Source of the DNA: a virus
Lineage: Duplodnaviria > Heunggongvirae > Uroviricota > Caudoviricetes
Strand: one strand, 5' to 3'
Virus record (IMG/VR): IMGVR_UViG_2850784384_000007
DNA length: 59,292 nt
Each line of letters starts with the position of its first letter. Position 1 is the stretch's first letter. Below, piece by piece: positions 24,564 through 28,012 of this stretch. Below the pieces are notes generated by a model, which searched no databases, had not been told where the DNA came from, and was given only the letters and a program-made list of their open reading frames with translations. The position numbers were made by a program, and so were the translations under genes.

Positions 24564-25647
24564 TGAGGTGTACTGGCAATAGCGGACACTACCATTTGTT
24601 CTTTTTTTAAGCAGCCATCTGATGATATTTTTCCCTGAAGGCTGCCGGGGAGATATTCCCCAGACGAGAGTGACGACGCTGACGATTGTAGAAAATCTCA
24701 ATGTATTCCCGTATTACTGAGATGGCTTCATCCCGGTTATTAAAACGATAGTGGCTCAGGCTCTCATTTTTCAGCGTTCCCCAGAAGCTTTCCATCGGAG
24801 CGTTGTCGTAACAGTTACCTTTACGCGACATTGATGTTTTCAGACCAGACTGCTCCTGTATGACCCGGTAATCGTATGCGCAGTACTGTGAACCTCGATC
24901 AGAGTGGTGGATTAGCCCGGCAGGTGGGCGCTGGCTCCTGAGCGCCATAAACAGGGCTTTACCTGTCAGCTCTTTTGTCATGCGCTCTCCCATGGCGTAG
25001 CCGACAATTTCACACGTATAAACATCTTTGATGCCAGCGAGGTACAACCATCCCTCCTGTGTGGCAACATACGTCAGGTCCGCCACCCAGACCTGATTTG
25101 GTGCTGTAGGAGCGAACGTCTGGTTCAGCAGATTTGGCGCAACTGGCAGATTGTGGTTCGGGTTCGTAGTCGCTCTGAACTTGCGTTTCTGCTTACAGCG
25201 TAGCCTCAGCTCCTTACGAAGACGTGCCAGTCGGTCACGACCAACGATGATGCCATTCTCTGCCAGCTCCGTCTGGAGCCGCCGGGTTCCATATGTTTCG
25301 CGAGTGCGGATATGTGCCACCTTAATCTCCGGTTTTAGCCGCTCATCACTTTGTTTTCTGTCTGAGGGTTCATGCTGTACCCAGTTGTAATAACCGCTCC
25401 TGGATACACCAAATACCTGACACATCGCTTCAATGGGAAATTGTTGTCGCCATTGTTCGATTAACGCGTATTTTTCAGCGACTCCTGTGCAAAATACGCT
25501 GTTGCTTTTTTTAATATATCTCGCTCAAGGCGAGCTTCATTTAACGCCTTACGCAGTTGCAGAATTTCAGATTCCAGTTCAGCCACCGTGCGGGAACCAG
25601 GAGTACCGAGCCCTTTTCTGGCGGCGGTAACCCATTGTCCTAAAGTG
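24564..25647 (-). mobile_element. IS600 (IS3 family) copy 1, truncated within orfA by IS629
   Basis: Terminal TGAGGTGTACTGGCAATAGCGGACAC; orfB intact (272 aa); element ends at IS600 position ~181 where IS629 begins. Confidence 0.85.
24607..25425 (-). CDS. IS600 OrfB transposase (full 272-aa form)
   Basis: MCQVFGVSRSGYYNW... with DDE-type motifs (WVADLTYV, HSDRGSQY, ESFWGTLK); includes the TQEGWLYLA segment missing from three other copies. Confidence 0.9.
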   Translation of the reverse strand: MCQVFGVSRSGYYNWVQHEPSDRKQSDERLKPEIKVAHIRTRETYGTRRLQTELAENGIIVGRDRLARLRKELRLRCKQKRKFRATTNPNHNLPVAPNLLNQTFAPTAPNQVWVADLTYVATQEGWLYLAGIKDVYTCEIVGYAMGERMTKELTGKALFMALRSQRPPAGLIHHSDRGSQYCAYDYRVIQEQSGLKTSMSRKGNCYDNAPMESFWGTLKNESLSHYRFNNRDEAISVIREYIEIFYNRQRRHSRLGNISPAAFREKYHQMAA

Positions 25648-25701
25648 TGAACCGCCCCGGGAATCCTGGAGACTAAACTTCCTGAGAAAGAGGTAAACAG
25701 G

Positions 25702-26028
25702 ATGACTAAAAATACTCGTTTTTCCCCCGAAGTCCGTCAACGGGCAGTCCGTATGGTTCTGGAAAGTCAGGGCGAATATGACTCACAATGGGCGACAATT
25801 TGTTCCATTGCTCCAAAGATTGGCTGTACGCCGGAGACTCTGCGTGTCTGGGGTCGCCAGCATGAGCGGGATACCGGGGGCGGTGATGGAGGGCTCACCA
25901 CCGCTGAACGTCAGCGTCTGAAAGAGCCGGAGCGTGAAAATCGTGAACTGCGCCGCAGTAACGATATCCTTCGCCAGGCTTCCGCTTATTTTGCGAAGGC
26001 GGAGTTCGACCGCCTCTGGAAAAAATGA
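25702..26028 (+). CDS. IS629 OrfA
   Basis: 108 aa [33 protein letters not shown]..., HTH plus leucine zipper. Confidence 0.85.
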
Positions 26029-26911
26029 TGCCACTGCTGGATAAGCTGCGTGAGCAGTACGGGGGCGGACCGCTATGCAGCGAACTGCATATTGCCCCGT
26101 CAACGTATTACCACTGTCAGCAACAGCGACATCATCCGGATAAACGCAGTGCCCGTGCGCAGCGCGATGACTGGCTGAAGAAAGAGATACAGCGCGTATA
26201 CGATGAAAATCACAAGGTATACGGTGTAAAGTCTGGCGTCAGTTGTTACGGGAAGGTATCAGAGTGGCCAGATGCACTGTGGCACGTCTCATGGCGGTTA
26301 TGGGACTTGCCGGTGTTCTCCGGGGTAAAAAGGTCCGTACGACCATCAGCCGGAAAGCCGTTGCCGCAGGCGACCGCGTAAACCGTCAGTTCGTGGCAGA
26401 ACGACCTGACCAGCTGTGGGTGGCTGATTTTACTTACGTCAGCACATGGCGGGGCTTCGTCTATGTGGCGTTCATCATTGATGTGTTTGCCGGATACATC
26501 GTGGGGTGGCGGGTCTCATCGTCCATGGAAACGACATTCGTGCTGGATGCACTGGAGCAGGCGTTATGGGCCCGTCGACCGTCCGGCACGGTCCATCACA
26601 GTGATAAAGGTTCTCAGTATGTATCGCTGGCCTACACACAGCGGCTTAAGGAAGCCGGATTACTGGCATCAACAGGAAGTACAGGCGACTCGTATGACAA
26701 CGCGATGGCGGAGAGCATCAATGGTCTTTACAAAGCGGAGGTAATACACCGTAAGAGCTGGAAAAACCGTGCAGAAGTGGAACTGGCCACACTCACGTGG
26801 GTGGACTGGTATAACAATCGACGATTGCTGGAAAGGCTGGGCCACATCCCTCCGGCAGAAGCAGAAAAAGCTTATTATGCTTCCATCGGAAACGATGATC
26901 TGGCAGCCTGA
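26025..26911 (+). pseudogene. IS629 OrfB transposase, internally frameshifted
   Basis: Expected single ~296-aa ORF is split into 26025-26381 and 26243-26911 in different frames; sequence GGTGTAAAGTCTGG where the intact protein (..[14 protein letters not shown]..) would need about 4 more bases. Confidence 0.65.
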
Positions 26912-26964
26912 GTTCACAGATAAAACACTCTCCAGGAAACCCGGGGCGGTTCAGTGCCTTCAGG

Positions 26965-28012
26965 ACAATGGGTTACCGCCGCCAGAAAAGGGCTCGGTAC
27001 TCCTGGTTCCCGCACGGTGGCTGAACTGGAATCTGAAATTCTGCAACTGCGTAAGGCGTTAAATGAAGCTCGCCTTGAGCGCGATATATTAAAAAAATCA
27101 ACAGCGTATTTTGCACAGGAGTCGCTGAAAAATACGCGTTAATCGAACAATGGCGACAACAATTTCCCATTGAAGCGATGTGTCAGGTATTTGGTGTATC
27201 CAGGAGCGGTTATTACAACTGGGTACAGCATGAACCCTCAGACAGAAAACAAAGTGATGAGCGGCTAAAACTGGAGATTAAGGTGGCACATATCCGCACT
27301 CGCGAAACATATGGAACCCGGCGGCTCCAGACGGAGCTGGCAGAGAATGGCATCATCGTTGGTCGTGACCGACTGGCACGTCTTCGTAAGGAGCTGAGGC
27401 TACGCTGTAAGCAGAAACGCAAGTTCAGAGCGACTACGAACCCGAACCACAATCTGCCAGTTGCGCCAAATCTGCTGAACCAGACGTTCGCTCCTACAGC
27501 ACCAAATCAGGTCTGGGTGGCGGACCTGACGTATGTTGCTGGCATCAAAGATGTTTATACGTGCGAAATTGTCGGCTACGCCATGGGAGAGCGCATGACA
27601 AAAGAGCTGACAGGTAAAGCCCTGTTTATGGCGCTCAGGAGCCAGCGCCCACCTGCCGGGCTAATCCACCACTCTGATCGAGGTTCACAGTACTGCGCAT
27701 ACGATTACCGGGTCATACAGGAGCAGTCTGGTCTGAAAACATCAATGTCGCGTAAAGGTAACTGTTACGACAACGCTCCGATGGAAAGCTTCTGGGGAAC
27801 GCTGAAAAATGAGAGCCTGAGCCACTATCGTTTTAATAACCGGGATGAAGCCATCTCAGTAATACGGGAATACATTGAGATTTTCTACAATCGTCAGCGT
27901 CGTCACTCTCGTCTGGGGAATATCTCCCCGGCAGCCTTCAGGGAAAAATATCATCAGATGGCTGCTTAAAAAAAGAACAAATGGTAGTGTCCGCTATTGC
28001 CAGTACACCTCA
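26965..28012 (+). mobile_element. IS600 copy 2, 5'-truncated (begins at IS600 position ~190), 27-bp deletion variant
   Basis: Opposite orientation to copy 1; preceded by 11 bp (26954-26964) that continue copy 1 in the minus orientation; ends ...CCAGTACACCTCA at 28012. Confidence 0.85.
27178..27969 (+). CDS. IS600 OrfB, 263-aa variant lacking 9 codons
   Basis: Identical to the 272-aa form except WVADLTYVA-GIKDVY replaces WVADLTYVATQEGWLYLAGIKDVY. Confidence 0.85.
   Translation: MCQVFGVSRSGYYNWVQHEPSDRKQSDERLKLEIKVAHIRTRETYGTRRLQTELAENGIIVGRDRLARLRKELRLRCKQKRKFRATTNPNHNLPVAPNLLNQTFAPTAPNQVWVADLTYVAGIKDVYTCEIVGYAMGERMTKELTGKALFMALRSQRPPAGLIHHSDRGSQYCAYDYRVIQEQSGLKTSMSRKGNCYDNAPMESFWGTLKNESLSHYRFNNRDEAISVIREYIEIFYNRQRRHSRLGNISPAAFREKYHQMAA

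Follow-up and report, generated by a model that had tools for sequence, protein, structure and literature searches.

The window, a stretch of 59,292 nucleotides of Caudoviricetes DNA, is 99.995% identical to Shigella flexneri LR213452.1, and the locus described here is part of a defective, decaying lambdoid prophage of this species. Its closest strain is a relative of the serotype 1c cluster that PMC9376355 discusses. Fragments of two phage genes enclose a nest of insertion sequences made up of the following features (window positions):

24256..24563, minus strand: C-terminal remnant of Nu1 (terminase small subunit gene), interrupted by IS600-A
24564-25647, minus strand: IS600-A, element positions 1264..181, 99.3% identical to the 1,264-bp IS600 reference
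25648..26953, plus strand: IS629/IS1203-type IS3-family element of 1,306 bp, 98.9% identical over 1,310 bp, with one gap, to a pO145 copy
26954..26965, minus strand: remnant of IS600-A past IS629, positions 183..172, read directly and by comparison with the IS600 reference and L003
26962..26965, no strand assigned: probable deletion joint with a retained 4-bp direct repeat, AGGA on the plus strand and TCCT in locus orientation
26962..28012, plus strand: IS600-B, positions 187..1264 by reference alignment, without IRL and the orfA start
28013..28192, minus strand: N-terminal 60 codons of a Rha-family regulator gene, interrupted by IS600-B

The reference for IS600 was a complete 1,264-bp element (L002:4075-5338), which shows 99.4% identity to a copy in E. 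coli VR50 that RefSeq labels 'IS3-like element IS600 family'. Both arms exceed the 95% identity to this reference taken as the lower bound for IS600 (left arm, 99.3%; right arm, 98.8-99.6%). They resemble IS600, a member of the IS3 family, in their DDE (rve) OrfB, their 99% identity and the sequence of the IRR tip (TGAGGTGTAC...); unlike a complete element, they are truncated at the other end. Both arms are IS600 fragments rather than whole elements, missing IRL and positions 1 to 172-186 with the start of orfA. What is left of IS600-A comprises IRR, a 272-aa orfB that is intact and, of orfA, the 3' portion; IS629 interrupts the element. Alignment of the arms to the reference gave positions 1264..181 on the minus strand and about 187 to 1264 on the plus strand, and all that an earlier sequence-only reading of the locus had described lies where it had been placed. 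In finer terms, 26958-28012 aligns to plus-strand IS600 183..764 and 790..1264, and IS600-B has a 27-bp in-frame deletion (IS600 positions 763-789, near window position 27539) that places it in a sub-lineage with this deletion in the catalytic domain and lowers the rve domain score from 90.6 to 68.2 bits. The ORF list accordingly gives the OrfB lengths noted previously, with 272 aa for the left arm against 263 aa for the right. The inverted arm pairs 24561-25045/27531-28015 and 25064-25645/26958-27539 are 99% complementary, and the arms differ by four SNPs and the 27-bp indel.

Enclosed by both inverted arms is the 1,306-bp element, with 25-nt terminal inverted repeats (92% complementary) and the target duplication GTG at 25645-25647 and 26954-26956. 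It resembles IS629/IS1203 in its terminal repeats (TGAACCGCCCCGGG...), its 98.9% identity over the full length and its 3-bp target duplication, and is itself full length (1,306 of 1,310 bp, with both terminal repeats and the duplication); the name IS629 rests on the RefSeq labels of the matching copies ('IS3-like element IS1203 family'). The window copy differs from the pO145 copy in that 4 nt are deleted near 26228, which frameshifts orfB and splits it into ORFs of 118 aa and 222 aa. An intact orfA/orfB pair for an OrfAB transposase is absent, and judging by its reading frames this IS629 is probably defective and non-autonomous owing to the orfB frameshift.

Directly after IS629, IS600 positions 183..173 follow in reverse complement at 26954-26964 (GTGCCTTCAGG), and plus-strand IS600 restarts at AGGACAATGG. 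The description of 11 bases of minus-oriented IS600 followed by a switch to the plus orientation was correct to the base. The AGGA at 26962-26965 is a 4-bp microhomology, belonging both to IS600 172-175 in reverse and to 187-190; the 26954..26965 remnant takes in the GTG duplication as well as the AGGA common to both arms.

The outer flanks are unrelated, as had been claimed: the left one is the C-terminal fragment of Nu1, the right one the initial 60 codons of the Rha-family gene. When the Nu1 halves of a related, undeleted locus (L010) are rejoined, the protein matches Pfam Phage_Nu1 (9e-19). The stop codon of the rha fragment is supplied by the IS tip (28010-28012), and in E. coli FDAARGOS_943 the IS-free gene carries the annotation Rha family transcriptional regulator. 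GTT at 24561-24563 (reverse complement AAC) is one copy of the IS600-A target duplication, and GAC at 28013-28015 (reverse complement GTC) is one copy of that of IS600-B. The structure as a whole (24564-28012) has no target duplication, its 3-bp flanks being GTT and GAC. A composite transposon was considered and rejected on the grounds of these unmatched flanks and of a single location, every occurrence found having the same left flank.

An undeleted long form of the locus was found in five S. flexneri genomes (L003, L005, L006, L009 and L010), with flanks 99.86-99.95% identical to those of the window; one example of a long-form locus is CP026799.1 922962-943144, around L009:10000-15600. It contains, in order, a complete IS600-B in rha, 1,505 bp of native phage DNA and a complete IS600-A in Nu1. 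IS600-B is flanked by GTC/GTC and IS600-A by AAC/AAC (L003); each ancestral copy thus has the 3-bp target duplication of an IS600 insertion, and the window retains half of each. The long-form IS600-A contains the same IS629 as the window, and this 1,306-bp copy occupies the same site in all long-form loci. The earlier view of IS629 as a simple insertion into IS600 orfA with a clean GTG duplication is borne out by this same insertion in the complete IS600 of relatives. The long form has inverted repeats flanking the segment that is lost from the window, and the IS-free form occurs in E. coli. An IS-free reconstruction of 2,358 nt gave one continuous match to an E. coli prophage at 98.9% identity, which fixes the direction of change.

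Comparison with the long form also gives the deletion that was said to accompany the structure its exact size, 1,866 bp. Long-form TCCT motifs lie at L010:11255 on the B side and L010:13121 on the A side, 1,866 bp apart, and when one TCCT and the interval (1,866 bp) are removed in silico, the resulting 120-nt junction string is an exact substring of the window. The break points therefore coincide with a direct repeat of which one copy is kept. The junction is quite probably the scar of this deletion, which would have fused two separately inserted, head-to-head IS600 copies, presumably by hairpin-stimulated slippage. The term 'snap-back' used in the sequence-only reading describes the geometry correctly, but the process it suggests, fold-back synthesis or inverted duplication, gives way to a joint of pre-existing head-to-head copies.

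The origin of the arms can be followed through their SNPs. Left-arm variants 307A, 323G and 497C are also present in the A copies of L009 and L010, and right-arm variants 307C and 323T in the B copies of L003, L005 and L006; because these allele-specific SNPs match the respective ancestral copies, the left arm is assigned to A and the right arm to B. The proposal that the arms are not a recent duplication is upheld by the long-form genomes, in which IS600 has inserted twice independently and each copy has a separate 3-bp duplication and separate SNPs. Since informative SNPs are absent between IS600 positions 190 and 306, the first 117 bp of the right arm are not assignable to A or B. The 27-bp deletion is missing from every complete B copy seen, and at least one further event must therefore be assumed, such as gene conversion from another IS600 copy with this deletion.

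The stretch without an informative SNP from 190 to 306 leaves room for a true snap-back, in which a fold-back or template switch at TCCT/AGGA within IS600-A::IS629 would have copied A outward, the new arm then recombining with IS600-B; taken alone, the junction sequence is one that a fold-back primed from IS600 172-175 and 187-190, a 4-bp inverted repeat, would equally produce. However, the right arm has B alleles from position 307 on, the B flank and the B half target duplication, and the ancestral locus already has B where a plain deletion requires it. Two events, including a crossover restricted to 117 bp, would be required in place of a single sufficient one, and we regard this scenario as very improbable. 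Fold-back replication within one IS600 was rejected because the arms carry SNPs of two ancestral copies and a two-copy ancestor exists. Fold-back inverted duplications and palindromic amplification share the final geometry of the locus (long inverted arms, a short asymmetric centre and a 4-bp microhomology), whereas here the arms are not mutual copies, the ancestor had both, and sequence was lost rather than duplicated.

The fused form is shared by related genomes. The junction creates a specific 62-aa ORF found in four chromosome-level assemblies and one 2011-era draft contig, and L008 has the same short-form structure as the window; the search for the same junction in related genomes, proposed beforehand as a check, found it in at least five independent assemblies. 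An artefact of assembly, from a collapsed repeat or a chimeric palindromic read, might be suspected at a junction between two multi-copy repeats only 11 unique bases apart. It is scarcely credible for a junction that recurs across different projects, in four chromosome-level assemblies, an independent draft contig and another contig besides, and the arms, unlike those of a palindromic read, differ by their SNPs and indel. Two separate complete IS600 copies, the observation named beforehand as one that would overturn the nested structure, do exist in sister strains, yet the fused form is real and inherited in this lineage.

Outside this group, an exact 35-nt junction scan of IMG/VR viral contigs gave no match, and none of 5,426 complete E. 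coli genomes contained the junction when searched by megablast with a 241-nt probe spanning it. The 24 E. coli genomes with at least 80% probe coverage all match as two separate pieces with different spacing. Single-piece matches of 78% on pO145 plasmids represent a different, independent insertion of IS629 in IS600. No record in the phage collection covers at least 80% of the region; its top match, a Stx2a phage, has the reverse nesting, IS600 inside IS629, and is useful only as a full-length IS600 reference.

A second deleted allele of the same locus, in L007, ends exactly at an IS600 terminus, so that two independent deletion alleles are known at this one locus. The L007 allele, together with the presence of three IS3-family elements at the site, lends some appeal to a transposase-catalysed deletion, either by intramolecular transposition of IS600/IS629 or by excision of the IS-excision-enhancer (IEE) type. 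In the window, however, both break points are internal to IS600 and none is at an IS end, IS629 keeps both GTG copies and eight more bases of IS600-A, and GTT and GAC form no target duplication around the whole structure; a transposase origin of this allele thus appears highly unlikely.

Comparison of the forms shows the following history. An intact phage with the order Rz - rha - small orf - cos region - Nu1 - terminase received IS600-B in rha (target duplication GTC) and, in opposite orientation, IS600-A in Nu1 (AAC), so that the two elements had their left ends turned towards one another, with 1,505 bp of phage DNA in between. IS629 then entered IS600-A within orfA, at positions 181-183. 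One lineage subsequently lost 1,866 bp, made up of 186 bp from the start of B, the spacer of 1,505 bp and the initial 171-175 bp of A, with break points at the two 4-bp TCCT direct repeats and one copy retained. Both IS600 arms are now without their left end and a complete orfA, and the prophage has lost the interval before Nu1 and the start of Nu1; both losses are irreversible.

A fold of L010:11225-13165 with DNA parameters pairs 182 of 183 B positions with A. The predicted stem base (11261/13133) coincides with the IS629 boundary, and of the TCCT repeats, that at 11255-11258 falls 3-6 nt outside the base of this 183-bp stem and that at 13121-13124 falls 9-12 bp inside it. Once single-stranded, B and A could pair through their inverted 5' ends into such a stem, its base set by IS629; a polymerase might stall soon after entering it, and the 3' end (AGGA) might anneal to the second repeat, bypassing the hairpin. 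This last step would be possible because the repeats lie on either side of the stem base. Inverted-repeat-stimulated slipped mispairing fits the geometry, and a transposase would not be needed.

The same geometry, with both end points no more than about 12 nt from the base of the predicted stem, and the 4-bp microhomology at the joint would also be expected if a hairpin or cruciform of the inverted IS600 5' ends had been cut by a structure-specific nuclease (e.g. SbcCD) and rejoined at TCCT by microhomology-mediated end joining. SbcCD cleaves a hairpin close to its loop rather than at its base, and such a cut would require near-equal resection of about 0.9 kb on both sides. This makes nuclease cleavage a rather unlikely route, although nothing in the sequence alone separates it from slippage. 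Four base pairs is a short microhomology. Slippage is deduced from geometry, and a cut at the stem base followed by microhomology joining would leave the same scar.

The closest known counterparts of the slippage reading are the nearly precise excision of Tn10 and Tn5 and palindrome-stimulated short-repeat deletion, reportedly described by Foster/Kleckner in 1981, Egner & Berg in 1981 and Glickman & Ripley in 1984. Nearly precise excision likewise involves inverted IS copies around the lost DNA and short direct repeats in or near the inverted repeats, close to the hairpin base; one repeat is kept, a shorter inverted-repeat remnant is left and no IS terminus takes part. In Tn10 and Tn5, however, the inverted repeats are the arms of one composite transposon, whereas here they are two independent head-to-head insertions, with a usable stem of only 183 bp because one arm is interrupted by IS629. 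Nearly precise excision of Tn10 involves a repeat of 24 bp as against 4 bp here, where the event is deduced from sequence. In the parts consulted of the literature on nearly precise excision and on IS600, IS629, S. flexneri and prophages, no description of this locus was identified.

The finding is one of ordinary insertion-sequence-driven genome decay and reveals no novel sort of element: both the elements and this type of rearrangement were known already, and it has little importance beyond bookkeeping. The deletion left a 3.45-kb unit with two outward-facing IS600 right ends (IRR...IS629...IRR). It is a long shot that this unit is moved by IS600 transposase in trans or, more modestly, that head-to-head IS pairs shortened by a third IS are deletion hot spots. 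If true, the 3.45-kb unit would be a new IRR-IRR composite element carrying IS629, and recurrent, position-determined hot spots would help drive the reduction of the Shigella genome. For annotators, palindromic IS junctions of this kind are not necessarily assembly errors, and the deleted allele could serve as a lineage marker. Because the IS-free, the IS-loaded and two deleted forms all survive in public genomes, the locus offers a clean natural example of inverted-repeat-stimulated deletion. The prophage can never package again, since the lost 1,505-bp interval before Nu1 is where a lambdoid phage would carry cos, and its lysis, replication and adjacent ipaH effector genes remain fixed in the chromosome.

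The repeat scan, with the sequence read over 24000-28600, found two inverted arm pairs, 24561-25045/27531-28015 and 25064-25645/26958-27539, that are 99% complementary, and between the arms an element of 1,306 bp bounded by 25-nt terminal inverted repeats. The complete 1,264-bp copy at L002:4075-5338, nested within IS629 in an Stx2a phage and 99.4% identical to a RefSeq-labelled IS600 family copy, served as IS600 reference. Alignment to it resolved the following parts:

24564-25647, minus strand: left arm, IS600 positions 1264..181
central element, 1,306 bp, GTG on either side: 98.9% identity to a 1,310-bp IS629/IS1203-type element
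to 28012, plus strand: right arm, IS600 positions 183..764 and 790..1264

The right-hand GTG is followed by 8 further minus-strand IS600 bases (CCTTCAGG) and then by plus-strand IS600 again, with AGGA at 26962-26965 common to both arms. The reference alignment, the sequence and ORF calls bear out the sequence-only reading of a nested IS600/IS629/IS600 structure at 24564-28012: the 3-bp GTG duplication around IS629, the 11 bp of minus-oriented IS600 after it (GTG plus the 8 bases), the join of IS600 position ~173 to ~190 and the OrfB lengths of 272 aa versus 263 aa.

The same prophage, with flanks 99.86-99.95% identical to the window, carries a longer locus in five other chromosomes or contigs (L003, L005, L006, L009 and L010). 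In locus orientation, this long form reads rha' (60 codons), a complete inverted IS600 (IS600-B), 1,505 bp of phage DNA, a second complete IS600 (IS600-A) holding the same 1,306-bp IS629 at positions 181-183, the C-terminal part of Nu1, and terminase. IS600-B is bounded by GTC/GTC and IS600-A by AAC/AAC; each has a 3-bp duplication and both are therefore simple insertions. The 1,505-bp spacer contains the remainder of rha, a small ORF, non-coding DNA at the position expected for a lambdoid cos and the first 70 Nu1 codons; the rejoined gene halves encode a 197-aa protein and a Nu1 matching Pfam Phage_Nu1. Excising the two IS600s in silico, each with one of its duplication copies, left 2,358 nt that matched, in a single piece and at 98.9% identity, the E. 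coli prophage in NZ_CP065615.1, annotated there as lysis protein, Rha family regulator, hypothetical protein, terminase small subunit and terminase large subunit. It follows that the ancestral state is the long form, from which the window form descends. The long-form locus goes on gaining elements: L003 has an extra insertion of ~1.25 kb inside IS629 (L003:13300-14550), and L006 an extra complete IS600 at position 167 of IS600-A (L006:13117-14380).

Two TCCT copies lie 1,866 bp apart in the long form, one on the B side at L010:11255 (reverse complement of IS600-B positions 190-187) and one on the A side at L010:13121 (IS600-A positions 172-175). Removal in silico of one TCCT and the interval gave a 120-nt joint string that occurs without mismatch in the window; the DNA lost comprises the first 186 bp of IS600-B, the first 171-175 bp of IS600-A and the 1,505-bp spacer between them. 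The left arm has the SNPs of the A copies of L009 and L010 (307A, 323G, 497C), and the right arm those of the B copies of L003, L005 and L006 (307C, 323T). At the sequence level, these SNPs confirm the assignment of the left arm to IS600-A and of the right arm to IS600-B. The arms thus carry SNPs of different ancestral copies, in agreement with the earlier view that this is not a simple recent duplication, and a fold-back duplication was ruled out, since DNA was also lost rather than gained. An associated deletion or inversion had been proposed as well; of the two, it is the deletion that is borne out, at 1,866 bp between the TCCT repeats. That the window form arose from the long form by deletion is, in our judgement, close to certain.

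An ORF of 62 aa that starts at the junction (GTG CCT TCA GGA CAA...) exists in the deleted form only. Four chromosome-level assemblies and a 17.7-kb draft contig (AFGV01000031.1) carry it, so that the junction does recur in related genomes; a further locus, L008, shows this structure as well, even with its many sequencing errors. Because of this recurrence, an assembly artefact was ruled out. In the draft contig (L012:10586-11490) the window's junction is followed by full-length IS600 from the exact position of a 27-bp deletion in the right arm onward, and the right flank differs, with an IS66-family transposase; the contig is a genuine recombinant or else, as an old short-read assembly, was mis-joined because of repeats.

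The IS600 left ends face each other in the long form, so B positions 183..1 can pair with A positions 1..183 on single-stranded DNA, leaving the spacer as a loop; pairing stops at 183 because IS629 interrupts IS600-A there. The predicted fold of L010:11225-13165 (DNA parameters) has 182 of 183 positions paired and a stem base at 11261/13133, the IS629 boundary, with the B-side TCCT 3-6 nt outside the stem base and the A-side TCCT 9-12 bp inside the stem. On entering the stem from the IS629 side, a polymerase would synthesise 12 nt that end in ...AGGA; if it then stalled, the new 3' end could anneal to the second TCCT, immediately beyond the stem base, and be extended, so that the hairpin would be deleted. 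Palindrome-stimulated slipped mispairing is an established model, also for the nearly precise excision of Tn10 and Tn5, and the step proposed here is the same. Under slippage, the junction would lie only 8 bp beyond IS629 because IS629 sets the stem end. From the predicted fold, we consider slippage the probable route, if by no means a secure one. Cleavage at the stem base with subsequent joining by microhomology would produce an identical scar; we hold this route to be unlikely. A transposase-made junction was ruled out, as neither break point lies at an IS end and IS629 retains both duplication copies, and so was insertion of a composite transposon, given flanks of GTT versus GAC and a single known location.

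A second, independent deletion allele of the locus is present at L007:10153-10203 (UAUS01000007.1, orthologous to window 24564-28015), where IS600-B and the entire spacer are absent. It reads rha' GGGTC-TGAGG-TGAGGTAGCC..., with 5 nt of the IS600-B right-end tip abutting the intact left end of IS600-A and a 2-bp TG overlap. Unlike the window junction, this one breaks on one side precisely at an IS terminus, and so points to transposase action targeted at an IS end. At least three separate IS629 insertions lie within the first 190 bp of IS600, and this segment may be an IS629 hot spot:

positions 181-183 (window 25645-25647), opposite orientation: this prophage
positions 183-185 (L001:1780-1790, 3094-3100), same orientation: pO145 plasmid, target duplication CTT
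position 122 (L013:1690-1700): E. coli VR50, IS600 5' end lost

The window's other three IS600 copies, all complete, lack the 3-bp target duplication, and each therefore took part in later recombination or deletion:

39415-40651: complete IS600, flanks gac/ctg
52006-53242: complete IS600, flanks tat/gcc
55421-56683: complete IS600, flanks ata/cat

In the right arm, a 27-bp in-frame deletion takes out IS600 positions 763-789 (window 27538-27540) and with them TQEGWLYLA of the catalytic domain. It is absent from the complete IS600-B copies examined and present in the window copies at 39415-40651 and 52006-53242, so that this DDE-domain deletion, with a 263-aa OrfB, is shared by three of the window's five IS600 copies. 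Several unrelated S. flexneri chromosomal sites, some of them in one long-form genome, encode the 263-aa OrfB too. The simplest reading is that, in the short-form lineage, IS600 copies may have recombined or undergone gene conversion with one another. Given its occurrence at several sites, a probably crippled IS600 variant has spread, by mobilisation in trans or gene conversion.

The surroundings are a lambdoid prophage, with tail, head and terminase genes on one side of the locus and Rz, lysozyme, holin, a tRNA cluster, Q and replication genes on the other. Two four-gene tRNA clusters (Met-Arg-Thr-Gly; 30599-30909 and 41422-41731) are 98% identical and ~10.8 kb apart, the second apparently in the remnant of another lambdoid prophage and adjoined by a QueH homologue (43711-44397). 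Another IS3-family element of 1.25 kb, with a 279-aa OrfB, occurs in three copies (38107-39360, 42361-43613 and 53674-54925) that are 99.8-100% identical, one of them inverted. Genes for ipaH-type type III effectors (LRR and NEL E3 ligase domains) lie inverted at opposite window ends (1060-2823, plus; 57482-59292, minus), each adjoined by a DUF4376 tail-fibre-assembly-like gene, and a 1.58-kb inverted repeat there (2044-3621/58261-56684) is 96.4% identical. The right-hand ipaH-type copy is split into a 226-aa LRR ORF and a 317-aa NEL ORF, and may therefore be a pseudogene.

Across 20 kb the window is 99.995% identical to LR213452.1, from S. flexneri strain AUSMDU00008355 (PMC9376355). By exact-sequence look-up, a 60-aa ORF spanning the right flank and the IS600 tip is present in hundreds of assemblies (387 index blocks). 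IS600 and IS629/IS1203, the IS-riddled S. flexneri prophage host and this class of rearrangement are all known already, and the exact window allele is present in public genomes; a full-text literature search, judged by titles and the first lines of abstracts, found no description of it. Specialists would find nothing unexpected in the rearrangement, and it raises no long-standing question. The locus is a tidy natural example with every intermediate preserved, and the deleted allele is a possible lineage marker.
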